Source: an uncultured Candidatus Saccharibacteria bacterium (GTDB taxonomy: Bacteria; Patescibacteriota; Saccharimonadia; Saccharimonadales; UBA7683). Taken from it: 64,000 nt of DNA. The position numbers and the translations under genes were made by a program. The stretch is from positions 7,833 through 71,832 of the forward strand of contig CAZWBG010000003.1 in assembly GCA_964632215.1 (NCBI GenBank), written 5' to 3'. The notes under the pieces were generated by a model. That model was not told the DNA's origin, ran no database searches, and saw only the letters and a program-made list of their open reading frames with translations. Every line of letters starts with the position of its first letter. The first letter of the stretch is position 1. Below, piece after piece: positions 4,031-34,579 of this stretch.

Positions 4031-4036
4031 ATGTAC

Positions 4037-7143: not shown

Positions 7144-7149
7144 GCGCTC

Positions 7150-7155: not shown

Positions 7156-7203
7156 CGTGAATGGACTGATCATGTAAATAAGATGTCGGTGTTTGAAATA
7201 ATT

Positions 7204-7254: not shown

Positions 7255-7289
7255 CCCGATTTAGGTAGAATGGATGTGGTTGGTGGAAT

Positions 7290-11292: not shown

Positions 11293-11300
11293 AGTAGTAA

Positions 11301-11309
11301 TGATATAAT
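11301..11309 (+). promoter_or_regulatory. Extended -10 box (TGaTATAAT) 9 nt upstream of GTG 11319
   Basis: Sequence reads TGA-TATAAT-ttaccagac-GTG. No SD is present. Confidence 0.45.
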
Positions 11310-11318
11310 TTACCAGAC

Positions 11319-12254: not shown

Positions 12255-12262
12255 GCAATCTT

Positions 12263-12271
12263 TGCTATCAT
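12263..12271 (+). promoter_or_regulatory. Extended -10 box (TGcTATCAT) 6 nt upstream of ATG 12278; leaderless candidate
   Basis: Sequence reads TGC-TATCAT-gagcat-ATG. Confidence 0.45.
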
Positions 12272-12277
12272 GAGCAT

Positions 12278-12844
12278 ATGGTAAAAGCGATAGTTTTTGA
12301 TTGTTTCGGAGTGCTCACTGAAGACGGCTGGCTGGCCTTTGTGCACCAGTGGGTTACGCCAGACACGCTAGACGCAGCTAATTATCTCAACCATCAGCTA
12401 GATGTTGCAATGATTGCCTACCCTGACTTTTTAGACCAGATAGCTGTTTTGACGGGCGCTTCTAAAGACGAAGTAAATAAAATGATTCGCAGGTATCATC
12501 ACAGAAATGCAGCGCTTCTTACGTATATCACTCAGCTGAAAAAACACTATAAAATTGGCCTACTTTCTAACATAGGCGGTAACTATTTAGCCGAATTCTT
12601 AACTAAGGAAGATCTGACACTTTTTGATGCCATGTCACTTTCGTGTGAGACTGGCTTTTTAAAACCAAACTCCGAGGCGTATCAAGATATCTGCACAAAA
12701 CTAGATACGTTACCCGAAGAAGCGATTTTTATAGATGACAGAGAGGGTTACTGCGAGGGCGCGCGGACGGTTGGTTTGCAGGCGGTTCACTATACCGGGG
12801 TGTCAGCATTAAGACGTGAACTTGCCAAGCTTCATATAGGCTAG
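12278..12844 (+). CDS. HAD-superfamily hydrolase
   Basis: N-terminal 'AIVFDCFGVLT' is a motif-I-like sequence in which the second Asp is replaced. 'IGLLSN' is motif II. 'IFIDDREGYCEGA' is motif IV. Confidence 0.65.
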   Translation: MVKAIVFDCFGVLTEDGWLAFVHQWVTPDTLDAANYLNHQLDVAMIAYPDFLDQIAVLTGASKDEVNKMIRRYHHRNAALLTYITQLKKHYKIGLLSNIGGNYLAEFLTKEDLTLFDAMSLSCETGFLKPNSEAYQDICTKLDTLPEEAIFIDDREGYCEGARTVGLQAVHYTGVSALRRELAKLHIG

Positions 12845-12929
12845 CACTTAGAGTGAGCTCCTCTGTTGAGAACCTTCATTCTATCTTGCGCAAAGAGAAG
12901 CGTAAGAGGTATACTATAGGGTAAGTCTA

Positions 12930-15900
12930 ATGAGGACGAAATACACTATTCATATGGAAAAAACACCGAGCAAAGTCAGTCGTAGAACTCCTGTGATTTC
13001 GATGGTTGGGAGCGTTATTATTGCTCTGCTTATAGCGGTGCTTCTTTTTTGGCTTTTTCGTTATTTGGGTAATCTAACGCAACCGACTGATAATACTGGA
13101 ACACCTCAACAAGCGCAGCTTGATGCTATTCAATCTGAACTCAACAACCTTAAACTACGCGTTACACAAGCAACTTCAGCAAATGACACTACACCGAATA
13201 GTTCACTTCAGGGATCCTCAGAAACATCTGCATCCCAAGGCGCTCCTAGCGTTCAGGGTCCAGTTGGCCCACAGGGTCCTCCTGGACCCAGCGGTACGGC
13301 TAGTTGCCCCAATGGCCCGTGTGCCTCGTTGCAGTCTACGACTCCAGGGGTGCAGGAAACTGGAAATTTTAACATTAGTGGTGGAGCCGTCTTTGGCGGC
13401 GATATCTCTGCTGGAGATATTACTGCCAGTGGTACCATTAGTGGTGATGGTTCTGGTCTCACGAACGTTGATGCCGCCACCCTGGGTGGCTACAGTGTCG
13501 GTAATAATGCGAACCAGATACCCCTCAACAATGGTACGCTCAATACCGACTTAAATGCCGATCTGCTCGATGGACAGCATGGATCCTTCTACCAAAATGC
13601 CGACAATCTCACTGCTGGTACCCTCGGTGATGCCCGTCTCTCAGCCAACGTCGTCCTGCAAAATGCTGCCAATGTCTTTACTGCCCCTACCAATACCTTC
13701 CAGGGCATAGCTGCTACTAACCTCCTGCAAGGTGGCAACCAAGTTTGTGACATCTCCAACAACTGTAACTATGCCCCAGGCTCTGGTAGTGGTAACTACA
13801 TTCAAAATGGTACCTCTGCTCAGACAGCCAATTTTAATATTACGGGTAACGGTTACTTTGGTGGTAATGTGGGGATCGGGACAACGAATCCTTTAAATCC
13901 ACTACAGATATTGAGTAATGGCGGTGCGGATGTCAGTATTGGTAATATTGCATCGTCGTATGGGGCGATCGGATTTTCTGATGCAGCTCTTTCAACATCT
14001 AACTATGCGCTGGCGGGTAATGGAGCTGGAGAAACAATTTTACAAGGTGGGACTGGCGGTATTGGGTTTAGGAATGGTGCAGGCGATCTCATGCGGCTTA
14101 CGCAGTCAGGTAGGCTTGGCATAGGGGTAGCGGCACCAAACAGTCCACTTGACGTCTTGGGTGGTGCAAATAATGGATATGTTGCTCGTCTCCAAAACCC
14201 CACACTAGGTGGCTATGGTTTGTTGATACAGACGAGCAGAAATAACTCTTCGGATGTAGGTTTAGCTATTAACGATCTGTTCTCAGTTACTACTGATGGT
14301 AGGGTGAACGCTACTAACCTTATTGCCACCAATACAATTACTGGTGCAAGCTTATTACAGGGTGGCAACCAGGTCTGCGATATCTCCAACAACTGTAACT
14401 ATGCCCCAGGCTCTGGTTCAGCTAACTACATCCAAAATGGCACAAGCTTACAGACAGCCAATTTTAACATTACGGGTAACGGTTACTTTGGTGGGAACGT
14501 TGGAATAGGGACAACAACACCGAACTATAAGCTAGAAGTAGGAGGCTCAGCACTATTTTCTACTATCTCAGGCTCTACGGTTGTTCACCTCAATGCAAGA
14601 AGTTCTGCGAATCAGTCGACCTTGCGATTCCAGGAGGACGGCACGCGTGCAGCAGATATTACTTTTGGTAATTCAACTCACGCATCACTCGCCAATCAAC
14701 TTAGGATCGTAAACGCTACCTCTACGGGGTCTTTGGTCCTTGGTACTAACGATTCGAGTAGGCTCACGATTCTTAGTGATGGTAATACTGGCGTTGGCAC
14801 GACAACGCCTGGCGCTCGTTTAGAGGTTGTAGCATCTAACGATCGAGCCGCGATATTTAACTCAGGGATCATGAGCGGAAATGGAAACATCGTTGATATA
14901 CAAGGCAGCCTAACGCGCAGCAGCACTGCCTCTACATATGGAGCTGCGCTCAACATAGGGGCTACAATTAGCCCGACGAGCGGCACCAGTAACCTGAGCT
15001 TTATAGATATAAATGGGACGATTAATCAAACAGCCACAGGTATTACTCGTGGGCTTTACGTACGACCAACAATAACTGCAGCACCTAACTTCCGTGGTGT
15101 AGAAATCGCCAACAATACTGGCTTTGGTTTGTATCAGAGTGGGGCAAACGCTTTGAACTACTTTGCAGGCAATGTGGGGATAGGGATGAGCAACCCTTCA
15201 GCAAAGCTTAACGTATTAGGAGATACCCAATTCTATGCTTTTGGCGCTACGGCTATGGGCGGCTTAACAAACTGGCTCAGGAGCGATCAAGGTACTGTTA
15301 CAGTGGTTGTGGGTATGAATGGTTCAACCAATGGACTTGGTGCCAATGTATCGAGCGGTAATATCCGTTTCAGTGGCCGCGACGTAGCCTCGGGCGACTT
15401 TGGCTATTATCCCACCGGTGGTGGAGCTGGCAACTATGGGACGTTCCGTTTTTCTAATAGTGGTAATGCGATCGCGACAACTCCCAATGCAAAGATTGGT
15501 GTAGGACAACTGTATTCGGCGGGAAGTGTTGCTATTGGTACAACATCCCCAAGCTACCTCTTGGACGTCCAAGGTGGCACCGGCATTGTCGGCCAGTTCT
15601 CTGGACGCGTGATTGGTGGCGATGCAGCAAATGCCAATGAATTCGTAACACTCGGGCAACTTAATGGTGCAGCTGGTAATTACATCCAAAATGGCACCTC
15701 TGCTCAAACAGCCAACTTTAATATCACAGGAAATGGTATTTTTGGCGGTAATGTGGGCATTGGCGCTACTCCTGTATCTAAGTTAACGGTTGGGGAGTAC
15801 ACCGATACAGCTCAGTCGCTAACCTTTGGCGATGATAGTAGCGCTCAGTATTACGGTATTTCAGCCTTTGATAATAAATTGAAGTTTGCGAGCCCTGGTG

Positions 15901-21301: not shown

Positions 21302-23455
21302 ATGGATCAAAACCCGCAAGATCAAACACCAGTAACAGATGAGCAAACCAGTCCGGTTTCATCAAATGTGAAGCAACAGATTGCCGAGAGTATCAAGGGC
21401 GGTAAAAACATCCTAGTTACCGTAGATTCTAATCCAACAGTTGATGAGCTTGCCGCAGCACTTGGACTTACATTTTTACTTAGCAAGCTCGATAAGCACG
21501 CCTCGGCGGTCTTCAGTGGTGAGATTCCTCCTGCGATGGAATTCTTGGACCCCGATGCGACATTTGAGAGCTCCGTTGATTCGCTCCGTGATTTCATTAT
21601 TGCGCTGGACCGCGAAAAAGCTGATAAACTGCGTTACAAAGTAGAAGATGAAGTGGTAAAAATCTTTATTACGCCATATAGGACAGTGTTAAAGAAAGAT
21701 GATTTCCAGTTCAGCCAGGGTGACTTCAATGTTGATGTAGTGGTTGCGTTAGGTGTAGAAAAACGAGACAACTTAGACAAAGCAATTATTGCGCACGGTA
21801 GAATTTTGCACGATGCTACAGTTATTACCATCAATATTGGTGATATCAGTAGTGGTTTGGGTGCACTTGATTGGAATGATCCTAATGCGAGCTCAATTTC
21901 GGAAATGCTCATGAGTATAAGCGAATCTTTTGGTAGCGGATTGCTGGATGAGCAGATCAGCACCGCCTTTTTAACGGGTATCGTGGCAGCAACCAACCGT
22001 TTTAGTAATGAAAAAACCAGTCCAAAGGTGATGACGATGGCTGCACAGCTTATGGCAGCTGGTGCTAACCAGCAGCTTATTGCAACGAATTTACGGCGTG
22101 AGGGAATGATTAGCGAGCAGGTTCGTCAAGACAATCATGCTCACAAAGACGATGGCGAGATGCTTGTAGAACACGAGCAAGAGAAACCCAAGCAAGACAC
22201 CCCTCAAAATAAACCACAACCGAGTCAAAATAGTGGACCTGCCAGAAAAGATAATAATACTAGCAACAAAAAGCCTCCAAAGAATGACGGTGGACAGAAG
22301 CAGGGCCAGAATCAGAATGCAAGTCAGAACCGAAACCAGAGTCAGAGTCAGCCACCTCAGAAACCCCAGAGTAATATTTCTCGAGTTCATCTGCAGAGCG
22401 CAGAACCGTCTCAGAGTGCAGACAGTGCGGGCGAGTTGAAGAAGACCCTCGACTTAGCTAACCAAAAAGTTGAAGCTGTGCCGCCACAGGCACCACAAGC
22501 TCCTTTATCGGTTGATGCACCACTTCATTCAATTACAGATGTTAAGTCAGAGGATGGGCCCGTGACTCGTGTAATTTCGGCACCAGCCCCACAGTTAGCT
22601 CCAACCAAAGCAGACGACCGCCCAACTTTTGGAGGGACACTCAATGCAACAACGGCCCAAGCAGCACAAAATGAAGTTGCACAAACCTTCCAAGAGGGTA
22701 CAACCAACAACGCAACGTTAGAGCACATGACGAGCGAATCTTCTAATGACGAAGCTGTAGCCGCAGCACGAAGAGCCGTAGAAGACGCTACCTCCCTTGA
22801 GCCATTTAATCCTGCGGGTCAGCCTCGAGAAGACATAGCCGCACAATCCTTGCCGTTACCAAGCTTAGGTGCGGTACCAGCTCCTCAGCCAAATGAGATT
22901 GAGTCTGTTGTGGCTGTGCCAGAGGTTTCACAGGTGCCCGAGCTGCCACCTTTGCCTCAGAGCGGTGGGTTCTCAACCGAGGCTGTGCCGATGCCACAAG
23001 CGGTGAATCAGCCAGAGCCATTCCCAGCTCCAGCTACACCACAAGTAGAATCACCAGGTGTTGTGGAGCCGATACCACTTGCAGCTCCTTCGGCAATGGA
23101 TGCTTCACCAGTCGGTGGCATACCGCCTTTGCCCCCAATGCCACCAATGCCTGTATCAACCGGTGATTTACCGCCTTTACCACCAATGCCAGGTCAGACA
23201 AATGATCCCGCGGCTAGCTTTCAACCTCAAGTGAGCCCAGACTTTATGCAAAACCAACCTCGAAGCCAGAACTACTTGACCGAACAAGGAGAAGCGATTG
23301 CAGCACAACAAGCTGAAAAAACTGCTACCCGCCAGGCTAAGATTGATGAAAGAACTGAACAGTACGACGCAGCCGTAGAGAAGAACCAAGAGCTCAAGGC
23401 TCAGGCAGCCGATCCGAACGATCATGCAACCTTCCCATTACCTCCGCAGTACTAG
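21302..23455 (+). CDS. Degenerate DHH/NrnA-like domain protein with long Gln/Pro-rich disordered region
   Basis: The N-terminal ~260 aa aligns by eye to the DHH-DHHA1 layout, but the catalytic motifs are replaced ('VTVDSNPTVDE' for H.nPDGD, 'GIVAATNRF' for G..tDTg.F). Low-complexity Q/N/P-rich sequence follows, including 'PPLPPMPPMP...PPLPPMP', and the protein ends in a coiled-coil tail. Confidence 0.5.
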   Translation: MDQNPQDQTPVTDEQTSPVSSNVKQQIAESIKGGKNILVTVDSNPTVDELAAALGLTFLLSKLDKHASAVFSGEIPPAMEFLDPDATFESSVDSLRDFIIALDREKADKLRYKVEDEVVKIFITPYRTVLKKDDFQFSQGDFNVDVVVALGVEKRDNLDKAIIAHGRILHDATVITINIGDISSGLGALDWNDPNASSISEMLMSISESFGSGLLDEQISTAFLTGIVAATNRFSNEKTSPKVMTMAAQLMAAGANQQLIATNLRREGMISEQVRQDNHAHKDDGEMLVEHEQEKPKQDTPQNKPQPSQNSGPARKDNNTSNKKPPKNDGGQKQGQNQNASQNRNQSQSQPPQKPQSNISRVHLQSAEPSQSADSAGELKKTLDLANQKVEAVPPQAPQAPLSVDAPLHSITDVKSEDGPVTRVISAPAPQLAPTKADDRPTFGGTLNATTAQAAQNEVAQTFQEGTTNNATLEHMTSESSNDEAVAAARRAVEDATSLEPFNPAGQPREDIAAQSLPLPSLGAVPAPQPNEIESVVAVPEVSQVPELPPLPQSGGFSTEAVPMPQAVNQPEPFPAPATPQVESPGVVEPIPLAAPSAMDASPVGGIPPLPPMPPMPVSTGDLPPLPPMPGQTNDPAASFQPQVSPDFMQNQPRSQNYLTEQGEAIAAQQAEKTATRQAKIDERTEQYDAAVEKNQELKAQAADPNDHATFPLPPQY

Positions 23456-24162
23456 TCTTTAAAGTAGTGGAAATGGTCTTGCATGTGCTCAGTTGTCCCG
23501 ATGCTCTCTTGCAAGGCAAGAACTTGCTTCATATCTTCTCGTTGAGAGTGGTGGGCACGCATAATTTCGAGTTTATGACTAATAACGTCACGATTGTCGA
23601 CAATCTCATCTATTTCTGCAGCTACTTTACCTGCAGGCATGTAGAGCCAGTTGATATTGGCTTGGGGTACCGAGACCTTCGGCAGGCAGAAATACTTTAG
23701 TACTCCCAGCGTAATATTGGGCTTGGCTTGTTCGCGCAGTGTCAAATAGACGAAGGTGGTGATACAGCTGACTGCAATATGGTCAAGGTGACCCGATATG
23801 CCTCCGCTGTCGAACGTCATAAAATCAACCGTAATAGGCTCGTGGTAGTGTCCGAGCGTTATTTCAATATATGTGAGTATTTTCTGGGCAATTTCAAGGT
23901 ATAGGTCATTATCAAGTCCACCGTCGGGGTAGTGCAGGGCGTGGCCGGATTTCACACCGATGAGCTTACCGCTATTTGCCCATTCTTTGAGTCGCACCTC
24001 TCCGAGATTCGTCACATTGTCGGGGTTGCGACCTGCCTCGCCGTCGGTCACAAGTATTAAGTGCACATCTGCACCAGCCTGAGTGGCTTTATAAAGAGTA
24101 GCGGAGGGGCCAAAGCCTTCGTCATCTGGGTGAGCAAAAATACCAAACAATACTTTCTTCAT
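23452..24162 (-). CDS. PIG-L/LmbE-family N-acetylglucosaminyl deacetylase
   Basis: Signature 'FAHPDDEGFG', plus downstream 'HLDH' and 'AHHSQ' metal and substrate motifs. Confidence 0.8.
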   Translation of the reverse strand: MKKVLFGIFAHPDDEGFGPSATLYKATQAGADVHLILVTDGEAGRNPDNVTNLGEVRLKEWANSGKLIGVKSGHALHYPDGGLDNDLYLEIAQKILTYIEITLGHYHEPITVDFMTFDSGGISGHLDHIAVSCITTFVYLTLREQAKPNITLGVLKYFCLPKVSVPQANINWLYMPAGKVAAEIDEIVDNRDVISHKLEIMRAHHSQREDMKQVLALQESIGTTEHMQDHFHYFKD

Positions 24163-24168
24163 AGCTCT

Positions 24169-24176
24169 AGTATACT
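24169..24176. promoter_or_regulatory. Palindromic shared -10 element (AGTATACT) for divergent PIG-L and truB genes
   Basis: The plus strand reads TATACT + 8 nt + ATG(24185). The minus strand reads TATACT + 6 nt + ATG(24162). Only 22 nt separate the two start codons. Confidence 0.55.
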
Positions 24177-24184
24177 AAATATCA

Positions 24185-24865
24185 ATGAAAGATATTATTC
24201 TGATTGATAAACCTGCCGGTTGGACTAGTTTTGATGTGGTAGCTAAGATCCGCGGGAAGATTCGAGCCCAGTATACCGAGCGTGGGGAGAAGCCCACGAA
24301 GAAACAGTTGCGCGTGGGACATGCTGGTACGCTGGATCCTTTTGCAACAGGCCTGTTGATCATTCTACTCGGCGAAGGTTGCAAGAAAGCTGGTGAATTC
24401 TTGAAACTCGACAAAACCTATGAATTTACCGCCAAACTAGGAGAGATGAGTACTACTGGTGACACTGAAGGAGGAATTGAGGTAGTATCTGACACCAAAC
24501 CAGATGAAAAAGCCGTCCTGGGGGCTCTAGACCAGTTCAGGGGGCAAATTACACAGGTACCTCCGGCATTCTCGGCTGTTAAGATTGGCGGTAAACGGGC
24601 ATACAAGCTTGCTCGAGAGGGTAAAACGTTTGAAATACCTTCTCGTCAGGTACAGATAGCCCGCCTTGAGCTTGCTTCGTACGAATATCCGTACCTTAAA
24701 TGCGTCTGCGATGTAAGCAGTGGAACCTACATCCGCACCTTGGTGGAAGATATTGGCAAAACTCTCAAAACTGGCGCCTACTGCACAGAACTCCGCCGCA
24801 CCAGAATAGGTGACTACCAGATTAAATATGCAAAGAATATAGAGGATATTATAAAAAGCACTTGA
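24185..24865 (+). CDS. truB: tRNA pseudouridine(55) synthase
   Basis: Catalytic motif 'VGHAGTLDPFATGLLIILLG', plus 'QVPPAFSAVKIGGKRAY'. Confidence 0.92.
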   Translation: MKDIILIDKPAGWTSFDVVAKIRGKIRAQYTERGEKPTKKQLRVGHAGTLDPFATGLLIILLGEGCKKAGEFLKLDKTYEFTAKLGEMSTTGDTEGGIEVVSDTKPDEKAVLGALDQFRGQITQVPPAFSAVKIGGKRAYKLAREGKTFEIPSRQVQIARLELASYEYPYLKCVCDVSSGTYIRTLVEDIGKTLKTGAYCTELRRTRIGDYQIKYAKNIEDIIKST

Positions 24866-26239
24866 TTAGTGGCGGGAGATACGGCGGCGGTGTATCAGGT
24901 AGAGACCAGAGCCAATAATTGTTATGAAGGAGGCCGCTGTAAGCGGTAGCAGGTTGGTGCCAGTATTGGCCAAGCTACTACTGGCACTGGCTAGATTCAC
25001 GGTTACGGTGCTAGTAGTACACAGCTGGGAGTTTGCAGTTGAGCAGATTGAATAGGTAAATGAATCCTGAATAGCACTTTGAGCTGAAGCAGGCTTGAAA
25101 AGTAAGCTATCGAATGACGCGAGTAAATTAAAACCAAGATTAGCCTGCTTATTTGGGGTATAGGTTATTTCACCGGTGGTTTGGTTGACCACTACAGTAC
25201 CTTTTTGCGGCTGGGTAGTGATGGTAACACTTGTGGGATCGACACTTTCATAGGTATCAGTATGGTTACTTGGAGCGTTGTAGGTTACGGAGCCTTTAGT
25301 CGCATCTAGAGTAATGGAAGAATCTATAATACTTGGAGCTATCGTGAGAGGTTGCCAGTCTTGGGACATCAGAGAGGAGATTTGCTGAGTATTAGTCAGT
25401 TGTTCCAACTCTGTACCGTCGATATTAATTGTATGGATTTGGCTTAAGCCTGTAACGTTTGATCTAAAAACGGCTTTCGCTCCATCTGGAGAAAAAGCTG
25501 GTCCAGATGTGTTGGATGCGGCTGTCCCAGGAATCGGAGATTGGTTAGCACCATTAGTATCCATAAGATACAGCTCATATGTACCGCTACGATTAGAGAC
25601 AAACAGTATCCTTAATCCGTTTGGAGAGAAGCTTGCATTTTGATCATTTCCAGTGCTAAATGTGAGTCTTTGAAGTTCGGTTCCATTGATATTGATACTG
25701 AAGAGTTCTACACCAAATCCTGATACTGTTTGGTGATAAACAATCGTTGTCCCGTCAGGTGAAAACACAGGGTAATTGCAGCTCGCACCTGAACCATTAG
25801 TGACTTGCTCTATATTAGTTCCATCAGAGTTCATCACAAAAACTTCTTGTATTGCCCCGCCCGCCCTGTTGCTTTTAAACACAATTCGAGAACCGTCCGG
25901 ATGCCAGCTTGGGTGCGCTTCGGTATAAGCGTTGTTACTTATATTAATCGCATTACTGCCATCTGCATTCATAATGTATATTTGATTATTGAGCCGATAA
26001 GCGATCTTCGTACCGTCCGGAGAGTATCTTGCCTCTTGTATCGCTTCAGAAGATACCAACTTGATATCCTCTCCGTTACTCCTCATTGTATAAATACCGT
26101 TGGGGTTTGCAGCGAGGTCTTGATACATAATTCTCCCGTTTAAACCTTGGAACGAGGCATAAGTTTGAGATGGAATAAGAGCCACCAGCAAAGCCAGAAC
26201 AGATGTGGTGGCTGCTAACTTTTTGAACGTTTGTTTCAT
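24866..26239 (-). CDS. Secreted PD40/TolB-like beta-propeller surface protein with LAxTG cell-wall sorting signal
   Basis: Signal peptide 'LAATTSVLALLVALIPSQTYA'. Repeated 'SPDG/HPDG...I.F.SNR' blades (at least 6). The C-terminus reads 'LANTG' followed by a hydrophobic stretch and 'HRRRISRH'. Its stop abuts the truB stop with a 0-nt gap. Confidence 0.8.
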   Translation of the reverse strand: MKQTFKKLAATTSVLALLVALIPSQTYASFQGLNGRIMYQDLAANPNGIYTMRSNGEDIKLVSSEAIQEARYSPDGTKIAYRLNNQIYIMNADGSNAINISNNAYTEAHPSWHPDGSRIVFKSNRAGGAIQEVFVMNSDGTNIEQVTNGSGASCNYPVFSPDGTTIVYHQTVSGFGVELFSININGTELQRLTFSTGNDQNASFSPNGLRILFVSNRSGTYELYLMDTNGANQSPIPGTAASNTSGPAFSPDGAKAVFRSNVTGLSQIHTINIDGTELEQLTNTQQISSLMSQDWQPLTIAPSIIDSSITLDATKGSVTYNAPSNHTDTYESVDPTSVTITTQPQKGTVVVNQTTGEITYTPNKQANLGFNLLASFDSLLFKPASAQSAIQDSFTYSICSTANSQLCTTSTVTVNLASASSSLANTGTNLLPLTAASFITIIGSGLYLIHRRRISRH

Positions 26240-26342
26240 TTATAACCTTACAGATTGATAGATCTATTTTAACATGGTTATGCTCGTATACAAGTAAGTC
26301 ATAACGACCGATTAGCTCCAGCTATGCAAGGTGGGGTGTTGG

Positions 26343-26468
26343 TACGCTCGTGGAGCTGTCTTTGTTGAAGAAAGCAAAAGAGGTGCTTATTGCACCGAGT
26401 TTCATCGTACTAGAATAGGCGACTACCAGATTGATAATGCACAGAACATAGTCGATATTACACGATAG
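26343..26468 (+). pseudogene. Relic of a truB 3' end (copy 2)
   Basis: 26388-26468 translates to 'YCTEFHRTRIGDYQIDNAQNIVDITR*', against truB 'YCTELRRTRIGDYQIKYAKNIEDIIKST*'. The alignment is gapless, with 18/26 aa and about 55/75 nt identical by hand. Weaker similarity continues upstream ('KRGAYCTE' vs 'KTGAYCTE'). Confidence 0.8.
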
Positions 26469-26494
26469 TTCCTAGTTCCTAGTAAATTAGGAAC
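26469..26494. promoter_or_regulatory. Candidate operator: three TTCCTA(G) half-sites (two direct, one inverted)
   Basis: The sequence ttcctag-ttcctag-taaat-taggaa lies immediately upstream of the -10 box of the wHTH-PRTase gene. Confidence 0.35.
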
Positions 26495-26499
26495 CTTTA

Positions 26500-26508
26500 T
26501 GATATACT
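26500..26508 (+). promoter_or_regulatory. Extended -10 box (TGaTATACT) 6 nt upstream of GTG 26515; leaderless candidate
   Basis: Sequence reads TGA-TATACT-cactac-GTG. An in-frame stop at 26500-26502 leaves GTG 26515 as the only available start. Confidence 0.45.
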
Positions 26509-26514
26509 CACTAC

Positions 26515-27492
26515 GTGAAAACATCAGAAAAAATTATCCGATATATTAAAAAACACCAACAGGTTACAGGTGTTGAATTGGCAGATTATCTTGATATTGG
26601 TGATCGAGCGGTACGTAAACAGCTGAAAACATTGCTTGATGGGGGAAAAATTCACAAGATTGGTAAGCCACCCAGGGTATACTATTATTTCAATACACAA
26701 GAAGTGTCAGAAGAACCTGTTGCTATACAACTTGATCCAGACACTCGGGATCTTATTGAAGAGAATTTCTATCATGTTACTCCAGTAGGGAACATACTTG
26801 AAGGGGTGGCAGGGTTTGTGGCTTGGTGTACCGCCAGGAATACCGATCCAGCTCATATGGCGGCCCAGTATTGGCAGGTGTATGAAAAATATGATAAGTA
26901 TCGTATCGATGGACTGGTTGACGGTACCAAAAAGCTACAGACTACCTTTGACAAGACGATGCTTGACGAACTTTTTTACATTGATTTTTATAGTGTGGAG
27001 ATATTTGGTAAAACTAAACTAGGTCAAATGCTTCTTTTCGCAAAGCAGAGTCAAGACAGATCACTGATTAACCAGGTTGCAGACATTGTTGCACCTCGAG
27101 TACGAAAAGTGATAAAAGACTATAAAATTGAGGCAGTTGGCTTTATACCACCAACCGTGAAGCGTGAACTGCAATTTATGAAACAGATTGAGAAGAGACT
27201 GCAGCTAGAATTGCCGGTAATTCCAATTTTAAAGATCAAGACCCCGGTAGTTGTCCCACAAAAAACACTTTCAAAACTTCAAGACAGGGTGATGAATGCT
27301 CAGAATACTATCAAAGTGGGTGGTCATACACCATATAAAAATATATTGCTGATAGACGACGCAGTTGGATCAGGAGCTACTTTGCAAGAAACTGCTCGTA
27401 AATTGCGCCAGAAAGGACTTGCAGAAGGCAGCATCATAGGACTTGCAATTACTGGCAGTATCAAGGGATTCGATGTAATTAGTGAGGTATAG
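26515..27492 (+). CDS. wHTH domain fused to ComF/GntX-like phosphoribosyltransferase
   Basis: N-terminal wHTH 'VTGVELADYLDIGDRAVRKQLKTLLDGGKIHKIG'. C-terminal PRTase PRPP loop 'ILLIDDAVGSGATLQETARKL', preceded by a ComF-like 'VGFIPPT...' segment. The Cys4 zinc finger typical of ComFC is absent. Confidence 0.65.
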   Translation: MKTSEKIIRYIKKHQQVTGVELADYLDIGDRAVRKQLKTLLDGGKIHKIGKPPRVYYYFNTQEVSEEPVAIQLDPDTRDLIEENFYHVTPVGNILEGVAGFVAWCTARNTDPAHMAAQYWQVYEKYDKYRIDGLVDGTKKLQTTFDKTMLDELFYIDFYSVEIFGKTKLGQMLLFAKQSQDRSLINQVADIVAPRVRKVIKDYKIEAVGFIPPTVKRELQFMKQIEKRLQLELPVIPILKIKTPVVVPQKTLSKLQDRVMNAQNTIKVGGHTPYKNILLIDDAVGSGATLQETARKLRQKGLAEGSIIGLAITGSIKGFDVISEV

Positions 27493-27626
27493 CCTCCGCC
27501 GCACTAGAGTAGATGAGTACTTAATTGCGAGTACCTGGACCATTGACGAGATACCTAAATAAACATATAGTTTACTCAGCTTTCGGGGGATCCTGAAGGT
27601 GTACCTATCAATCAAGGAGGTCCACC

Positions 27627-28334
27627 ATGGCGGTGGAGCAGTATATGCGAGAAGGTTCACTGCTCGTCAGTGACGAACGCCTCACGGAGCGTAAAGCTCG
27701 CCAGCAGCTGCTGAGTGAGACGGGGTTCGAACAGGTGCTCTCCTACGAGGAGACCCAGGTCCATCGGCTTGAGATGGCCAAGCTGGTCTTCACTGAGTTG
27801 ACGGGGAAAGAGCTGACCATGTGGCGTCGGTTTCTGCCGACTACGGTCTCCACTGAACAATATCGTTTCGATCAGCCGCCAACCGAAGTACTCGAGGTCA
27901 TCAAGGCGGCTCAAGCGATGCAGTGTTTTGATCGGATCGAAATCTGGACACCAGAAGGTAACAACGTACGTGGGGCCATTGCTCGTGTGATCAAACGAGG
28001 GGTCAACCGTGTTACCAACTTTCTGGCTGAGATCGATCCGATGGCGGTTGGAGTAATCAATGGCGCCGACAACGCTCCGTGCTACTACCCGATTGTGCGT
28101 TGGGGCGAGAGTCTCTTGCCCGTCAAGCGAATAAAGGCCCATGTTAGACATACCCGCTTAGGTGTGCGTACCGTCGCCACACTGTTGGCCATGGTCATCC
28201 TGGCTGCGCTCGGTGGAGCAGTTTTCGGCATCGCTGCGATGGCCGCCGCTTTCGGCTGGTGGCTACTCCTCTGTGCGGCTGTGGTGGTTATTGTTGTCGC
28301 GTGGTTGGGGCGCGGCGTTTACCTCTTGTGGTGA
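27627..28334 (+). CDS. Hypothetical protein with C-terminal double TM anchor, encoded in a GC-rich (foreign) patch
   Basis: Strong SD AAGGAGG lies 7 nt upstream. A soluble ~170-aa N-domain is followed by 'VATLLAMVILAALGGAVFGIAAMAAAFGWWLLLCAAVVVIVVAWLG'. Hand GC counts are 36/60 and 40/60 nt inside the gene versus 18/60 in the neighbouring gene. Confidence 0.7.
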   Translation: MAVEQYMREGSLLVSDERLTERKARQQLLSETGFEQVLSYEETQVHRLEMAKLVFTELTGKELTMWRRFLPTTVSTEQYRFDQPPTEVLEVIKAAQAMQCFDRIEIWTPEGNNVRGAIARVIKRGVNRVTNFLAEIDPMAVGVINGADNAPCYYPIVRWGESLLPVKRIKAHVRHTRLGVRTVATLLAMVILAALGGAVFGIAAMAAAFGWWLLLCAAVVVIVVAWLGRGVYLLW

Positions 28335-28504
28335 CCTAGTTCAGCCGACTTTCCTTAACGGACTACATAGCCTCATCCTGATGTATCAGGATGGTCCGTG
28401 CCCTGCTGCACATATATTTGTGCGCGGGGTGTAGGCGTCCTACTTGCGTAGCAACTGATGAGACCTAGGAAGTTTAGGTCGAATAGGACAAAAGATGAGT
28501 ACGT

Positions 28505-28650
28505 GTGAGCTCTACCCACACGATTTACTTTGAGAACTTCTCGGCAGTGGTGTTCTCTTGGGATTGGTACTTTATTGTACCGACCCCTGCCACACTAAAA
28601 CAGGCAACTACAGTATTGAAAATGCCCTGAATATTGACAATATAGCCTAG
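28505..28650 (+). pseudogene. Relic of a truB 3' end (copy 3, more decayed)
   Basis: 28573-28650 translates to 'YCTDPCHTKTGNYSIENALNIDNIA*' and aligns without gaps to both other copies (YCT[ED]...T[RK].G[DN]Y.I..A.NI..I). A possible frameshifted 'VSS...' segment begins at 28505. Confidence 0.65.
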
Positions 28651-28663
28651 AGTATGCTATAAT
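28634..28663 (+). promoter_or_regulatory. Consensus sigma-70 promoter (TTGACA-18-TATAAT)
   Basis: The -35 TTGACA (28634-28639) lies inside the last codons of truB relic 3. The -10 TATAAT is at 28658-28663. The promoter drives the 28706 gene. Confidence 0.6.
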
Positions 28664-28705
28664 AAAATAATAGATATGGTTCAATATGATTGAAAACGAT
28701 AGCTG

Positions 28706-30085
28706 ATGAAGAACTATGAAACAAACACCAAGTTAAAGAATCCAGGTATTCCTAAAAGCCGCGAGATCTTTGTAGGCGATATTAACGACGCTGTCATCAA
28801 AGTACAGCAGGTTACTGGCTTTGAGGTTACACCTGAATGGTGGATGAGTGAAGTTGGTAATGAGGGTGCGACCGAAGACATACTCGACCGCTTCGACAGA
28901 GCATTTGAGCAGTTTATTCACCTACAAATGAGTACAGCTGAATCTAGCGAGGTTGAGAATGCGACGATTTCCGAAGCTGATAAGCAGTTAGACGAGTTTG
29001 ATCAGGCAATGCCAAAAACAGAAGCAGATGTTCAGCTTCGAGAGGAGTTCCTTGAGGAGCTCGCAGAACATCTGAAGGAGAAATATTGCTCAGAGAAGCC
29101 AGAAGTAGTAGGTACCGACCCCAGAGACCAGATACTTCTATCAGGATCCGTAGAGTACTTAGCGGCGGAGCAGGCACGTAAAGAGCTTGAAGACCCGGTA
29201 ACGCGAATCGTGGAGCTTCACTACTCGAGCGAAGGTCGAGAGATTACGCTTCTTGGCACGAACCACACTTTTGACCCTGATGACCCAGGGATCGCTTATT
29301 TAGACAGTTTTGTGAGAGAAAAGGCGAGTAACCCGCGAACGGTATTTATTCTCGAGGGTCAGTACAGTAAAACCGAAGCGCCAATGACCAATCCAGTTGA
29401 TGCGGTGATAACTGGCGGCGAATTTAACTACACGGCTTCTTTGGCTAATCAACTTGGTGTTGAATATATTCCAGCTGAACCTGATCCCAGGACTAATGCT
29501 GAACAGATCTTAGTGGAAAACCCAGAGATTACTCGTGAAGAAGTAGCTTTGCACTACACGGTGAAAACATTGTCAGCATTATTCAAAGATCAGGATGAAC
29601 AGCCTCTAGCTGATATTTCTCCGTATGTTTATTGCAGCGCAGGTATTGGCGGTACCACAGAAGACGGAGGAGTAGTTGAAAAAAGTTTCAGTAGGACCGA
29701 CATTCTAGAAATTAGCGATGATCTGCGGGGTAAGATTAATCTTGCTATGCCACAGCTTATCGAACAGCTCAACGAAGTATTTATTAAAGTTGTACCTGGG
29801 GAGACCTTACTGGAATTAATAGATGATGACGTCGTGAAACTAGTGTATAACCTTAATAGTCAACCGGTGCTTTGGGATCCTGCACCCGAACTCTCAAATC
29901 GTGAACCAACTGTCATAACGAAAATATCACAACTAGATATGCTTATGAGAGACCGTCACACGTTTAGTCTTATGCAGCAAGCACTGGATGAGGGTAAGGA
30001 GCCCGTAGTGGCTGTTGGAAGCTCGCATGTGAGTACACTAGGTCCAGCCATGGATGCAGCATACAAAAAATCAGAAGAGCAGTAG
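28706..30085 (+). CDS. TraB/GumN-like (erythromycin-esterase superfamily) protein with acidic N-terminal region
   Basis: 'ITLLGTNHTFDP...VFILEG' and C-terminal 'MRDRHTFSLMQQAL...PVVAVGSSHVSTLG' resemble the TraB/PrgY/GumN motifs (GTaH...E, RD..m, vGagH). The assignment is by eye only. Confidence 0.4.
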   Translation: MKNYETNTKLKNPGIPKSREIFVGDINDAVIKVQQVTGFEVTPEWWMSEVGNEGATEDILDRFDRAFEQFIHLQMSTAESSEVENATISEADKQLDEFDQAMPKTEADVQLREEFLEELAEHLKEKYCSEKPEVVGTDPRDQILLSGSVEYLAAEQARKELEDPVTRIVELHYSSEGREITLLGTNHTFDPDDPGIAYLDSFVREKASNPRTVFILEGQYSKTEAPMTNPVDAVITGGEFNYTASLANQLGVEYIPAEPDPRTNAEQILVENPEITREEVALHYTVKTLSALFKDQDEQPLADISPYVYCSAGIGGTTEDGGVVEKSFSRTDILEISDDLRGKINLAMPQLIEQLNEVFIKVVPGETLLELIDDDVVKLVYNLNSQPVLWDPAPELSNREPTVITKISQLDMLMRDRHTFSLMQQALDEGKEPVVAVGSSHVSTLGPAMDAAYKKSEEQ

Positions 30086-30217
30086 CTTATGACTTTTAGT
30101 CTACATCTGGTAGACTACGGGTATGGATATTTATGCAATTGGTAAGATTCAGGCAGGTACCTCAAGTTGATTAACTGAGTCAGAGACATTAATCAACGGA
30201 TAACAAGGTAGGATTTT

Positions 30218-31891
30218 ATGATTGCACGAATTTTAATTGCTAATAAGAGTTTTGGTGACAAACAACTTTATAAAGATTTAGACATCTCAGTTCAGCGTGG
30301 GGAGAAGATCGGCCTGATTGGTCGTAATGGTACGGGTAAATCTACTCTACTAAATATTATCAGTGGACTAGATAAAGATTACGACGGCGATATCACTTTG
30401 CAAAAAAGTGCTGTTTTGATCTCGAGTCGTCAGGAGCATCATGGCTATGAGAAACTTTCAGTCTTAGAGTACATCCTGGGTGATTTACCAGAGTACGCTC
30501 AGCTCAAGCACGTGATAGAAACCTATCCGGAGCACATGGGAGAGAACGAGCAGAAATTGCAGGCTTACAGCGATGCACTGGAGCGGTTTGGTAGTTTGGG
30601 TTATTTTGAGATTGAAAGTGATGTTGAGCGAGCGCTGTCAGATTATCAGTTAGTGCTTGATATCAACCATACAACTCTCGGTAGCTTGAGCGGTGGCCAA
30701 AAGCGGATGGTGGAGCTCGTAAAGGTACAGCGGGCTCGGGCCGATGTAGCGTTGATTGATGAGCCGACTAACCACATGGACTATGTAGCCAAGCAGTCGT
30801 TTGTGAGCTGGCTGAAGAATACCGACGAAGCAGTGCTGGTGATTACTCACGACCGCGATGTTTTGGGCGTGGTGGACAGAATTGTCGAGATTCGCGATGG
30901 CAAGGCCTACAGCTTCAAGGGTAACTATAACGACTACTTGCGATCTAATACTCAAAATATCACCTCACAAGTAAATGAATTTGAGACTGCCCAGCGGCGG
31001 ATTGTAAATCTTAAGAGTAACGTCGTAAGGTTTAAGCGAATGAAAGAACGCTCGCGTGATCCGGGTACGATCCACCGTTTTAAATCACTCGAGCAGCGGG
31101 CAGCGGCTGAGTTGGCTGAGCTCTCAGGTGGCGAGAAGCCAACTTTCTGGATTGATCGTGAATCTGCCGAAGATCTTGGGACGAAGATGAGTGAGGCTTA
31201 TTCTGAGCATAAAGCTCGTAATATTCGAGTGCGCACCAAGCATAAAACTGATGCGAGCGAGAAGCAGCTGATTAAGGTTGATGGTATCAGTTTGGGCTAC
31301 GGTAAGGAGCCACTTTTTGCACCTGTAAATTTTGAGCTACGATCTGGCAGTAAATTGCAGCTGAAAGGTCGTAATGGTGCTGGTAAGACCACGCTAGTGC
31401 AGGCAATTCTAAGTACGGTACACGGTGGCAAGCCAGAATCGACTGTATTTAGCGGACATATTGAGCACGAGCCACGCTTGAGAATTGGTGTTTACGAACA
31501 AGAAATTGACCCACAGTATTTGGAGATGACACTGAATGAAGCGATCGAACACATTTATAATGTAAAAGATTTATCCATTACCGATGAGAAGATTAAGCAG
31601 CTACTGAGTGACTACCTTTTTAACCCACACACCGATGCAATCATGCAGCTGCAGCGGTTGAGTGGTGGTCAGAAGGCTCGCTTCCAACTGATTGCGATGC
31701 TAGCGGGTGACCCAGAGGTACTTATTTTGGATGAGCCAACCAACCACCTTGATCTACCGAGTATTGAAGAGCTGGAGGATGCTTTGAGTCAGTACCACGG
31801 GGCAATTTTGTATATCTCACACGATAGCTTCTTTACCAAAAACCTTGGCGGCGAAGTTGTGGAGGTGGCAGCTGAGACAAAAACGACTTGA
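30218..31891 (+). CDS. ABC-F family ATPase (two ABC domains, no TM domain)
   Basis: Walker A motifs 'GRNGTGKSTLL' and 'GRNGAGKTTLV'. Signature motifs 'LSGGQKRMVEL' and 'LSGGQKARFQL'. Walker B motifs 'ALIDEPTNHMD' and 'LILDEPTNHLD'. A charged interdomain linker joins the two ABC domains. Confidence 0.9.
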   Translation: MIARILIANKSFGDKQLYKDLDISVQRGEKIGLIGRNGTGKSTLLNIISGLDKDYDGDITLQKSAVLISSRQEHHGYEKLSVLEYILGDLPEYAQLKHVIETYPEHMGENEQKLQAYSDALERFGSLGYFEIESDVERALSDYQLVLDINHTTLGSLSGGQKRMVELVKVQRARADVALIDEPTNHMDYVAKQSFVSWLKNTDEAVLVITHDRDVLGVVDRIVEIRDGKAYSFKGNYNDYLRSNTQNITSQVNEFETAQRRIVNLKSNVVRFKRMKERSRDPGTIHRFKSLEQRAAAELAELSGGEKPTFWIDRESAEDLGTKMSEAYSEHKARNIRVRTKHKTDASEKQLIKVDGISLGYGKEPLFAPVNFELRSGSKLQLKGRNGAGKTTLVQAILSTVHGGKPESTVFSGHIEHEPRLRIGVYEQEIDPQYLEMTLNEAIEHIYNVKDLSITDEKIKQLLSDYLFNPHTDAIMQLQRLSGGQKARFQLIAMLAGDPEVLILDEPTNHLDLPSIEELEDALSQYHGAILYISHDSFFTKNLGGEVVEVAAETKTT

Positions 31892-31971
31892 TAATTTTGG
31901 CTACATCTGGTAAGATGGTTTGTAACGCCATTGGAAACAATACATCTCTAACACAATTTTGAAAGGTTCGG

Positions 31972-32238
31972 ATGATTACAACGGAGAAAAAAGCAGTTGC
32001 CATTAAAGCAACACAACGAAGCAAAGCAGATGTCGGTTCATCAGAAGTACAGGCTAGTATTTTAACTGCTCGTATTAAAGAATTAACTGAACATCTTAAG
32101 ATTCATAAAAAAGACAATCACTCACGTCGTGGCCTTTTACAGATGGTTGGTAAGCGCAAGAGACTTCTCAAGTATCTAAAAGAGACAAACTTCGCAACCT
32201 ACAAAGCTACCGTCGAAAAACTCGGTCTTCGTAAGTAG
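31972..32238 (+). CDS. rpsO: 30S ribosomal protein S15
   Basis: '[48 protein letters not shown]' is canonical S15. Confidence 0.92.
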
Positions 32239-32455
32239 AGAACTCGCGAGAACTCTCCATGGCTAGGGCTGTGGAGGGCAAGGCGAGCGCTCCATAAAGA
32301 GTAGTCGATCGCGCGAATGCGTGTCTCAATGGGCATATCTCGATGTTTAACAATAAACTGCCAGTTGGTGGTGTATGACGCTGAGCGCGCAGCCCTTTTG
32401 GTGCGAACTGTGCGGTATACATCATGCTGGTCATGAAGAAGAAAGGACATACATC

Positions 32456-34579
32456 ATGTCATCAGATACTATTAACCCATTTGGTAAAGAAAAAATTTCA
32501 GTTGAGACTGAGCTTTGCGGTAAAACCCTTAAGCTCGAGGTAAATCGAGTTGGCTTTAGAACTTCAGCCTCAGTTATTGTCAGTTACGGAGAAACAGTGG
32601 TTCTTGGTACGGCTATGGTTGGTAATAAGCCAATGAGTGGTATGGATTACTTTCCACTTTCTATCGACTACGAAGAAAAATTCTACGCAGCTGGTAAGAT
32701 TAGTGGCTCCCGCTTTGTTAAGCGTGAAGGTCGCCCATCTGACGATGCTATTTTAATTGGCCGTTTAATTGATCGTCCAATACGACCACTCTTTCCAAAA
32801 GGCTATCGCCAAGAAGTCCAGGGAGTGGCGACGGTGCTTTCTATGGATCCAACTTTCCGCCCAGACATGGTAGCGATGATTGCTATGAGTGCAGCCCTAA
32901 GCCTTACCGGTGCTCCATTTGATGGCCCGATCGCAGGACTCCGCCTTGCACAGGTGAACGGTGAATTTAAAGCTTTTGCGTCACCTGAGGAAATTGAAAA
33001 TAGCGACCTCGACCTTGTTGTCGCAGCTACTGAAAAAGCTATTATTATGGTAGAAGCTGGTGCCAGCGAAGTCAGCGAAGAATTGGTCGGAGATGGTCTC
33101 GCTTGGGCGCACGAGGCTATGCTGCCGGCTATTAAACTGCAGCAAGAACTGATAGCTCTTGTGAAGCCAGAACCACGTGAGTACGAACTTGTATTACCGA
33201 ATGAAGAGATTCAGACCGAAGTAAATGCTTGGGTAGATGGCAAGCTTGGTGAAGGTCTGCGTGCGCCATATCCAGAACGTAATGAGCTAGTTTCAACTTT
33301 GAAAAATGCTTTCCACAGTGAATTTAAAGAAAAGCATGGTGAAGAATATACGAATCTCCATAATGAATACGAGGAAGCTTTTACCAAGGCACTTCACGAA
33401 GATGTACGCAAGGGAATTGTCGAACATCAACTGCGTCCAGATGGTCGTCAGTTAGATGAAATTCGCCCACTCAGCTCTGAGGTTGGCTTCTTACCCCGCG
33501 TACACGGATCAAGCATCTTTACTCGTGGTATGACTCAGGCGATCAACATTATAACGCTTGCTCCACTTTCTTACGCACAAGTTGTTGACACGATGGAGCA
33601 GACCGATGGTGAGCGACGCTATATGCACCATTACAACGCTCCTGGTTACACGGTTGGTGAAGTACGCCGACTTGGTGGAGCAGGACGACGCGAAATCGGT
33701 CACGGCTACTTAGCTGAACGAGCCCTAACTGCAGTTCTGCCAAAAGAAGAAGATTTCCCATATGCCATACGTTCGGTCACTGAAATTATGAGCCAAAACG
33801 GTTCTACCTCTATGGCTGCAACGTGCTCAAGCTGCTTGGCCCTTATGGATGCTGGTGTTCCTTTGGTTCGCCCAGTGAGTGGTATTGCAATGGGTCTGAT
33901 GATGGACGGTGATACGCCGTACGTACTTTCAGATATTGCTGATGCTGAAGACTTTGCTGGCGACATGGACTTTAAGGTGACTGGAACTGAAAAGGGTATT
34001 ACTGCACTCCAGATGGATATGAAAGTCCACGGTTTGCCGATTGAGATTCTGCGGGAAGCTTTAGCTAAGGGTAAAATTGGCCGAGCTAAGATTCTTGACC
34101 ACATGATTACCATCTTGGCTGAGCCACGAGACAAGCTTAGCCCATATGCTCCGCGTATTGAAAAATTGATGGTTAACCCAGAAAAAATCGGTGCAATTAT
34201 TGGTAAGGGCGGTGAAACCATCAACAAGATTACTTCTGAGACAGGTGCTATGATCGACATTAAAGACGACGGCTTAGTAACAGTCGCTGCTGTTGACGGC
34301 GACTCAATTGAGCGAGCTTTGAATTGGATTAAGGGCCTAGTTGAGGAGCCAGAAGTCGGCAAGATCTATACCGGTAAAGTCGTGAAAGTCATGGACTTCG
34401 GTGCCTTTGTGCAGTTTATGCCAGGTCAAGACGGCATGGTGCATATCTCCGAACTAGCTGATGGCCGAGTAGAAAAAGTTACTGATGTCGTTAACGAAGG
34501 CGACGAAGTACAAGTAAAGCTAATGGCGATTGACGACCGTGGTCGCATGAACCTTTCTATCAAACAAGTTAAGGAATAA
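32456..34579 (+). CDS. pnp: Polyribonucleotide nucleotidyltransferase (PNPase)
   Basis: Two RNase PH domains ('RPDGR...IRP', 'GGAGRREIGHG'), a KH domain ('IGAIIGKGGETINKI') and an S1 domain ('GKVVKVMDFGAFVQF'). I prefer ATG 32456 after GAAAGGA over ORF-track 32375. Confidence 0.95.
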   Translation: MSSDTINPFGKEKISVETELCGKTLKLEVNRVGFRTSASVIVSYGETVVLGTAMVGNKPMSGMDYFPLSIDYEEKFYAAGKISGSRFVKREGRPSDDAILIGRLIDRPIRPLFPKGYRQEVQGVATVLSMDPTFRPDMVAMIAMSAALSLTGAPFDGPIAGLRLAQVNGEFKAFASPEEIENSDLDLVVAATEKAIIMVEAGASEVSEELVGDGLAWAHEAMLPAIKLQQELIALVKPEPREYELVLPNEEIQTEVNAWVDGKLGEGLRAPYPERNELVSTLKNAFHSEFKEKHGEEYTNLHNEYEEAFTKALHEDVRKGIVEHQLRPDGRQLDEIRPLSSEVGFLPRVHGSSIFTRGMTQAINIITLAPLSYAQVVDTMEQTDGERRYMHHYNAPGYTVGEVRRLGGAGRREIGHGYLAERALTAVLPKEEDFPYAIRSVTEIMSQNGSTSMAATCSSCLALMDAGVPLVRPVSGIAMGLMMDGDTPYVLSDIADAEDFAGDMDFKVTGTEKGITALQMDMKVHGLPIEILREALAKGKIGRAKILDHMITILAEPRDKLSPYAPRIEKLMVNPEKIGAIIGKGGETINKITSETGAMIDIKDDGLVTVAAVDGDSIERALNWIKGLVEEPEVGKIYTGKVVKVMDFGAFVQFMPGQDGMVHISELADGRVEKVTDVVNEGDEVQVKLMAIDDRGRMNLSIKQVKE

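Follow-up and report, generated by a model that had tools for sequence, protein, structure and literature searches.

Displaced copies of the truB gene end in a Saccharibacterium, consistent with serial insertion of single-gene units at a new target gene

How do Saccharibacteria add genes to their chromosomes? Like other members of the candidate phyla radiation (CPR) they have tiny genomes and few documented mobile elements, and their gain of accessory genes is poorly understood. We address this question at one locus, the 3' end of truB, in a 64,000-nt window (the whole stretch of DNA analysed) from a Candidatus Saccharibacteria (TM7) genome. Downstream of the intact gene lie three relics of its 3' end, R1, R2 and R3, all on the plus strand, in frame, stop-terminated and intergenic. 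The gene and the four copies of its end are as follows:

24185-24865, plus strand: truB, intact, 226 aa, the target gene (Pfam TruB_N, E = 3.6e-46; TruB_C_2, E = 7.9e-9)
24767-24865, plus strand: current truB tail, the reference copy for R1-R3 (87.8 bits with the tail hidden Markov model, HMM, described below)
26375-26468, plus strand: R1, 'KRGAYCTEFHRTRIGDYQIDNAQNIVDITR' and a stop codon, a displaced truB end
27494-27562, plus strand: R2, 'LRRTRVDEYLIASTWTIDEIPK' and a stop codon, beginning 1 nt past the stop codon of the preceding gene, a winged helix-turn-helix phosphoribosyltransferase (wHTH-PRTase)
28558-28650, plus strand: R3, 'YCTDPCHTKTGNYSIENALNIDNIA' from 28573 and a stop codon, with its 5' boundary at ~28558-28573

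An earlier sequence-only reading had reported two of these relics, R1 and R3. Both lie where it placed them, on the plus strand, in frame and stop-terminated, and both are real; the third, R2 at 27494-27562, had been overlooked. The identities counted by hand in that reading hold as well: R1 and the current tail share 18 of 26 residues and ~57 of 75 nt (the hand count was ~55 of 75), and R3 and R1 share 12 of 25 residues. In blastn searches R1 and the 3' end of truB align over 86 nt with 75.6% identity (E = 2e-11; tblastn E = 1.6e-8), and R2 matches the truB tail at 85% over 27 nt (E = 0.01). When the last 30 TruB residues were compared without gaps against all six frames of the 64-kb window, the top three matches all fell in the truB-rpsO interval, with scores of 104, 59 and 46 (the last being R2) against a background maximum of 37. 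The tail HMM was built from the truB tails of 14 other species, contained no window sequence, and was run on 10,600 stop-to-stop frame segments from the window and those loci. Beyond the genuine truB genes it matched exactly R1 (E = 7.5e-11), R3 (E = 5.9e-5) and R2 (E = 2.1e-4), and each match extends to the last profile position, with a stop codon behind it. All three relics exceed the background in the ungapped scan and are significant by an independent model. A separate repeat search returned the truB tail and R1-R3 as the four in-register copies of one family, D1. Two extensions suggested earlier fell away: the similarity of R1 back to ~26343 is background identity, with homology starting sharply at 26375, and a frameshifted continuation of R3 from ~28505 has no HMM support in any frame.

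The same arrangement recurs in two more Logan assemblies (runs SRR16797977 and SRR16797980). As it is seen in three assemblies, it is not an assembly artefact. Exact-protein look-ups with truB and the PRTase returned the same strain with identical content only. The resulting order is truB, current tail, PD40 gene, R1, PRTase gene, R2, membrane protein gene, R3 and orf459, and the genes and blocks between and beyond the tails are listed here:

24866-26374, minus strand: block A, the predicted newest insert, consisting of the PD40 gene and its 135-nt upstream region
24866-26239, minus strand: gene for a PD40 beta-propeller surface protein (Pfam PD40, E = 3.6e-30)
26469-27493, plus strand: block B, containing the wHTH-PRTase
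26468-26494, plus strand: terminator-like hairpin directly 3' of the R1 stop codon, from a terminator scan
~26500-26508, plus strand: extended -10 element TGATATACT, after the hairpin and ahead of the PRTase gene, from direct reading of the sequence
26515-27492, plus strand: wHTH-PRTase gene, 325 aa (Pfam HTH_11 and Pribosyltran)
27563-28557, plus strand: block C, the predicted oldest insert, containing the membrane protein gene
27627-28334, plus strand: gene for a GC-rich predicted membrane protein, 235 aa
28706-30085, plus strand: orf459, with homologues directly after truB in at least nine relatives
30218-31891, plus strand: ABC-F ATPase gene, 68-81% identical to its counterparts and syntenic in most related loci that span the interval
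31972-32238, plus strand: rpsO, the distal conserved flank (Pfam Ribosomal_S15, E = 1.6e-33)
after rpsO, plus strand: pnp

Which part of this DNA is inserted can be judged from ~30 related truB loci (labelled L001 and so on) drawn from genomes, metagenomes and Logan assemblies. The close truB homologues are all from Saccharibacteria metagenome-assembled genomes (MAGs); truB homologues in Saccharibacteria are 58-80% identical, and the closest relatives sampled have a TruB identity of at most 80%. A gene of the orf459 family stands immediately 3' of truB in at least nine relatives (L004, L006, L027, L029, L035, L050-L053 and L054/L055), which thus display an 'empty' truB-orf459 junction. Of the loci that extend far enough to cover the truB-rpsO interval, most have an ABC-F gene inside it; in L013, L024 and L025 this gene abuts truB. 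Because both genes neighbour truB in relatives, we regard them as residents and not as cargo. R3 is positioned as the truB end is before orf459 in relatives (a gap of 55 nt, compared with 30-48 nt from truB to orf459 in those loci), which limits the inserted DNA to 24866-28557. The predicted insertion is thus ~3.7 kb and has three blocks of one gene each, separated by R1 and R2. All of the ~30 related truB loci lack the three cargo genes, and truB-tail relics are likewise absent from them. The ancestral order that we favour from these comparisons is truB-orf459-ABC-F-...-rpsO.

These comparisons redraw the limits of the insertion that the sequence-only reading had proposed. It had treated all of 24866-31971 as inserted, the wHTH-PRTase and GC-rich membrane protein genes as one block, and direct truB-rpsO adjacency as the recent ancestral state. 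The TraB-like gene (orf459) and the ABC-F gene are instead ancestral, which makes half of the proposed insert ancestral, and only ~3.7 kb would stem from the process that made the relics; R2 separates the PRTase and membrane protein genes into two blocks; and direct adjacency of truB and rpsO, seen in distant Proteobacteria-type loci (L016, L017, L036 and L037), does not represent the recent ancestral state of this Saccharibacteria clade. Its central proposal fits our results, namely that the truB 3' end has served as a serial insertion site at which each insertion supplied a new end and moved the older one downstream, leaving the oldest end farthest from truB. A presence/absence comparison across relatives goes part of the way, in that the blocks are missing from all and many have the empty truB-orf459 junction; it offers no close strain in which intermediates could be seen.

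The divergence of the tails indicates where they came from. Differences between R1 and the current tail number 5, 5 and 14 at codon positions 1, 2 and 3 overall and 1, 1 and 8 in the conserved core, where six codons differ by synonymous changes only and two are nonsynonymous (p = 0.003). Such an excess at third positions argues that R1 diverged under purifying selection and is not a decayed local duplicate. R1 is apparently a former working truB end from another lineage. In their variable parts, R1 and R3 gave medians of 31 and 29 against 117 natural tails taken from the closest TruB homologues; natural tails among themselves gave 28. R1 and R3 stop at natural positions; R3 has the most common natural length and stop position, 25 aa counted from YC, and the current tail, like R1, falls inside the range of natural tails. 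Both relics have a broken form of the otherwise invariant LRRT motif (FHRT in R1, PCHT in R3), a signature of release from selection. Pairwise, the four tails are 24-40% diverged, and successive copies share exact runs of no more than 12, 6 and 6 nt. We favour the interpretation that the tails derive from other lineages, with the current truB tail as the probable most recently imported gene end, an attL-like copy. R3 is predicted to be the original, ancestral truB end.

Two of the relics overlap predicted promoters:

28634-28663, plus strand: predicted orf459 promoter TTGACA-18-TATAAT, a 12/12 match with TG, its -35 box inside R3
27543-27571, plus strand: promoter-like site TTGACG-17-TATAGT, a 10/12 match, its -35 box inside R2 and facing the membrane protein gene

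This arrangement also occurs at natural gene ends. A promoter matching at 10/12 or better, with its -35 box in the last codons, is present at 13 of 23 natural truB ends (L002-L004, L006-L008, L014, L027, L029, L035, L048, L050 and L054), six of them perfect 12/12 matches; the background frequencies are 0.4% and, for a 12/12 match, 0.07%. The -35 box TTGACA is formed by the last truB codons, 'IDK' (ATT GAC AAx). The R3 promoter has the position (-17) and spacer seen at the truB-orf459 junctions of L027, L004 and L035, a geometry also found in L008, and the R2 site has the geometry of the natural truB-end promoters. Judged by these matches, the truB end in this clade doubles as the predicted -35 element of the next gene's promoter. 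R3 and R2 now serve as predicted promoters for the genes to their right, which explains their retention. The current truB tail contains no sigma-70-like promoter, unlike 13 of the 23 natural ends, and this fits its convergent neighbour, the PD40 gene.

Each inserted unit is 1-1.5 kb long and holds one intact gene; Pfam identified PD40 and the wHTH-PRTase in the blocks, and the membrane protein is unannotated. The stop codon of the PD40 gene abuts that of truB, with 0 nt between them. The nearest PD40 homologues are ~44% identical and reside in contexts that resemble integrative and conjugative elements (ICEs) or are rich in defence genes, beside type IV secretion system (T4SS)-type or restriction-modification genes. 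The wHTH-PRTase matches the PADLOC model of the PsyrT toxin over its C-terminal 320 residues (E = 1.4e-19), with weaker matches to ShosT and to the retron III-A PRTase; no partner antitoxin-like gene adjoins it. Its family has more than 3000 members across Patescibacteria, in shifting contexts that include polysaccharide clusters. The DNA of block C (27600-28400) has a GC content of 55-57% compared with 42-48% around it, and searches of Pfam, PADLOC, PHROGs and PLSDB plasmids gave nothing for its membrane protein; this suggests an origin outside this lineage. The surface protein of block A, the defence-effector-like PRTase of block B and the GC-rich membrane protein of block C make typical island cargo. 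A Pfam scan found no recombination, conjugation or mobilisation genes in the units, nor do they contain an open reading frame (ORF) of a recombinase pseudogene; the earlier statement that no integrase is present in the block is borne out. We also looked for a donor arrangement, and the nearest homologues of PD40 (44%) and of the PRTase (60-65%) were never beside truB.

One PRTase homologue, in L043, is part of an ICE-like element. The region (positions 1-12981 of this Patescibacteria contig) encodes, besides the PRTase homologue, ATPases of the VirB4-like and VirD4/TraG-like kinds, a large serine recombinase, a Fic protein and an M23 peptidase. On the same contig the C-terminal 37 aa of an ORF at 3102-4139 are repeated 300 nt downstream (4452-4562) at 65% identity, another gene-end relic.

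The homology of R1, R3 and R2 to truB sets in sharply at positions corresponding to 24767, 24779 and 24791 of the gene, within 9 codons of 226. For random breakpoints the probability of such clustering is ~0.005, and we counted it in favour of site-specific integration. A perfect 5-bp inverted repeat, GGTGC-TTATT-GCACC, lies at the 5' boundary of R1 (26382-26396), and one of the same type, GGTAC-TTTATT-GTACC, at the 5' boundary of R3 (28565-28580); the difference between the two is compensatory. The repeat is found in 1 of 23 natural truB genes and in 6.3% of random segments, is not in the current truB or R2, and was noticed post hoc. It is a possible recombinase core or a coincidence. No tRNA gene was detected in the 64 kb by ARAGORN, and Rfam gave no match at 23000-33000. 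A Xer-type tyrosine recombinase gene with a Phage_integrase domain (E = 6e-42) and a SAM-like N-terminal domain lies at 61988-62914 on the minus strand, at a distance of 30 kb from the array. Xer/dif-dependent modules (IMEX, pdif modules) would call for a dif-like site of 28 bp (11-6-11) at all junctions; the features of the window that bear on them are this gene and the 5-bp inverted repeat, which occurs only at the R1 and R3 boundaries.

With moderate confidence, we read the locus as a tandem array resembling cis-mobilizable elements (CIMEs), in which the relics have found a second use as promoters; both the target, truB, and the host phylum would be new for such arrays. In this scheme the ancestral locus would have read truB-orf459-ABC-F-...-rpsO, the last truB codons forming the -35 box of the orf459 promoter. 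A circular integrative element would then have recombined site-specifically with truB around codons 195-203, three times in series. Every element would bring its own copy of the last 22-30 truB codons, so that truB stays intact; its cargo would land directly 3' of truB and the previous end would be displaced distally as a non-coding relic, the newest insert being nearest truB in a Campbell-type topology. The elements would have lost, or may never have had, their recombination genes, leaving three single-gene CIME-like units without an integrase. The sequence comparisons show the relics, their order, their derivation from truB tails, the lack of the blocks in relatives and the overlap with promoters; that a circular intermediate and a site-specific recombinase took part, and that integrases were lost, we infer. 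The foreign character of the tails, exact matches too short for RecA and the Campbell-type topology together favour serial site-specific integration: exact matches of at most 12 nt are below the minimal identity for RecA and compatible with a short recombinase core.

Several observations weigh against this reading. The check for an att core at the junctions, which the sequence-only reading had called for, returned longest exact runs of 12, 11 and 6 nt, no identical core longer than 12 nt and no run common to all four copies; a core of 6-8 nt could have been lost as the old relics decayed. The three 5' boundaries lie near one another without coinciding. The array neither contains nor adjoins a recombinase gene, and the Xer-type gene is the only recombinase among the window ORFs scanned against Pfam. 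In relatives with at most 80% TruB identity, 20 ORFs from truB-rpsO intervals scanned against Pfam and the precomputed Pfam annotations of L048-L055 include no recombinase, and no related locus was found to have an intact element with an integrase at truB; a tail-alignment scan found no isolated truB tail on viral contigs. The units are exactly gene-sized, with junctions of 0 nt (truB/PD40) and 1 nt (PRTase/R2), which three independent decays would not predict. Finally, no TruB more than 80% identical exists among 5.8 billion proteins, so that there is no close strain and no intermediate state to observe. A phage or plasmid attP was considered and dropped, given the empty viral-contig scan and a membrane protein without a plasmid match.

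The array might instead have been built by transformation, an explanation that we hold to be unlikely. Chromosomal fragments of other Saccharibacteria, each with the 3' part of the donor truB and its downstream gene, would enter by natural competence and be joined by homologous pairing in truB on the left and by an illegitimate join just upstream of the resident tail on the right; variants are homology-facilitated illegitimate recombination and, for a fragment that has become circular, Campbell-type insertion by RecA. Natural competence is ascribed to Saccharibacteria, and the window encodes a type IV pilin array. Because the slot downstream of truB varies among relatives and within species, donors with different neighbours exist, and the R2-membrane gene and R3-orf459 pairs have natural promoter geometry, as if each tail and the gene on its right had travelled together. 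That neither a recombinase nor an att core was found also speaks for transformation. However, tails diverged by 24-40%, with exact runs of at most 12 nt, and relatives whose TruB is at most 80% identical are too diverged for RecA anchoring. Illegitimate joins should scatter, yet the three boundaries fall within 9 codons, and PD40 and PRTase homologues were never found beside truB. A simpler set of explanations, in which the copies reflect local tandem duplication and decay, chance similarity or an assembly chimera, we consider effectively refuted. In favour of these explanations speak the shortness of the copies and the modest individual E-values of R2 and R3 (~1e-4 to 1e-5). The third-position excess nevertheless marks divergence under selection, the independent HMM finds these three sites only, in window and relatives alike, the intervening DNA is unrelated cargo of differing GC content, and three assemblies reproduce the structure.

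The gene-sized units and the inverted repeat of R1 and R3 keep alive a further reading, in which a trans-acting recombinase handles gene cassettes; we think it quite improbable. Units of a single gene plus a truB tail would be inserted at the truB end by a recombinase encoded elsewhere or on a helper element, in an integron-like logic in which the truB end corresponds to attI and the tails to cassette sites. Every unit consists of exactly one intact gene and very little flanking DNA, with 0 and 1 nt left at two of the junctions, none carries a recombinase pseudogene ORF, the newest unit is nearest the target as in integrons, and the inverted repeat, with its spacer of 5-6 nt and compensatory difference, sits at the R1 and R3 boundaries. 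Against this, the tails lack attC-like folding, for which we scored all four copies on both strands (DNA z-scores of -1.7 to +0.1); the inverted repeat is missing from the current truB and R2 and was a post hoc observation; the units have mixed orientation and their own promoters; and there is neither a second such array in ~30 related truB loci nor a recombinase linked to this one. A doubtful extension of the idea makes the truB end the docking site of a Saccharibacteria-specific cassette capture system, not described before and lacking a local integrase, whose sites are coding-derived and non-folding and whose tail supplies a -35 box. It is likewise a speculative suggestion that a recombinase elsewhere recognises a short inverted-repeat core at codons 195-203 and swaps units between lineages.

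The preferred reading, serial integration of CIME-like units, can be set beside known systems. At icd of Escherichia coli, the e14 prophage and phage 21 insert in the 3' end of the gene, provide an alternative end that differs mainly by synonymous changes, and leave the old end downstream. They are single integrase-bearing prophages with a defined identical core, unlike three stacked integrase-less remnants. Integron arrays and clusters of attC sites lacking integron-integrases (CALINs) resemble the truB array in having gene-sized units, each with a site-like repeat, the newest unit nearest the insertion point and no need for a local integrase. They differ in that the truB repeats are former coding sequence without an attC hairpin, the orientation is mixed (PD40 is opposite) and there is no IntI; promoters of their own ahead of the PRTase and membrane protein genes add to the contrast. 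Streptococcal CIMEs are 1.2-13 kb long; at the 3' ends of rpmG, rpsI, fda and rplL as many as three are found in tandem (PMC7563491). Arrays of CIMEs, ICEs and elements that are integrative and mobilizable (IMEs) share with the truB locus integrase-less units, adaptive cargo, direct repeats derived from the 3' end of a housekeeping gene, stacks of up to three and an intact target gene (PMC7563491). The truB array, for its part, has no intact ICE or IME partner, its repeats are 24-40% diverged without an identical core, it lies in a Saccharibacterium with truB as the target, and none of its units has more than one gene. In the genomic islands of Prochlorococcus, tycheposon arrays contain partial tRNAs (10.1101/2020.12.28.424599). 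There, too, a streamlined host undergoes repeated integration at one site, newer elements push older ones outward, and partial target copies and degenerate remnants are left. Tycheposons have tRNA targets, tyrosine recombinases and replication modules, none of which is in the truB array, and the window holds no tRNA. A search of the literature returned no account of truB serving as an integration target, its matches being to the author name 'Trubl'. As an insertion hotspot the locus belongs to a known type; what is new is the host and the target gene.

For Saccharibacteria such a locus would represent a route of gene gain, by repeated insertion of single genes at a defined site that leaves both truB and the promoter of the downstream gene unbroken. 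If a recombinase acting on the site is found, the truB end could become a natural landing pad for genetic tools in a group that is hard to manipulate.

The truB-rpsO region is also a general insertion hotspot. The slot downstream of truB is different in almost every relative and polymorphic within a species: insertions of 2.5, 1.3 and 4.2 kb, placed right behind stop codons, distinguish strains whose TruB is identical (P0283). Compared with L050 and L051, L053 has an additional 2.5 kb ~5 nt past the stop codon of the orf459-family gene and 1.27 kb at the ABC-F stop codon, and L052 has a further 4.15 kb that includes an IS1595 transposase and a PheS-like gene. The 2.5-kb insert of L053 is flanked by an imperfect direct repeat of ~20 nt with half of a terminator hairpin, which is single copy in the empty site.

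The distal part of the interval differs from that of relatives as well. In 11 relatives the stretch between ABC-F and rpsO holds a conserved minus-strand gene, an orphan of ~530-660 aa without a Pfam match, usually with a small plus-strand ORF (loci compared: L001-L003, L007, L008, L013, L014, L027, L034, L048, L050 and L054); in L009 and L011 the orphan gene abuts truB. In the window both the orphan gene and the small ORF are missing at 31892-31971, leaving 80 nt from ABC-F to rpsO, and the window appears to have lost this gene.

A general habit of leaving gene-end relics was considered too and rejected: when the termini of all ORFs were scanned across the window and 30 loci, the truB relics, pilin paralogues and two unrelated oddities were the only results. 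In L007 (16292-16354) the last 21 rpsO codons are repeated in inverted orientation at the gene end with 90% identity, probably an assembly artefact or an inversion breakpoint. The window itself encodes at least five type IV pilin-like paralogues at 56304-60809, which have the N-terminal sequence 'GFTLIEVVLVLAIGG' in common, and two of them also share a C-terminal domain.

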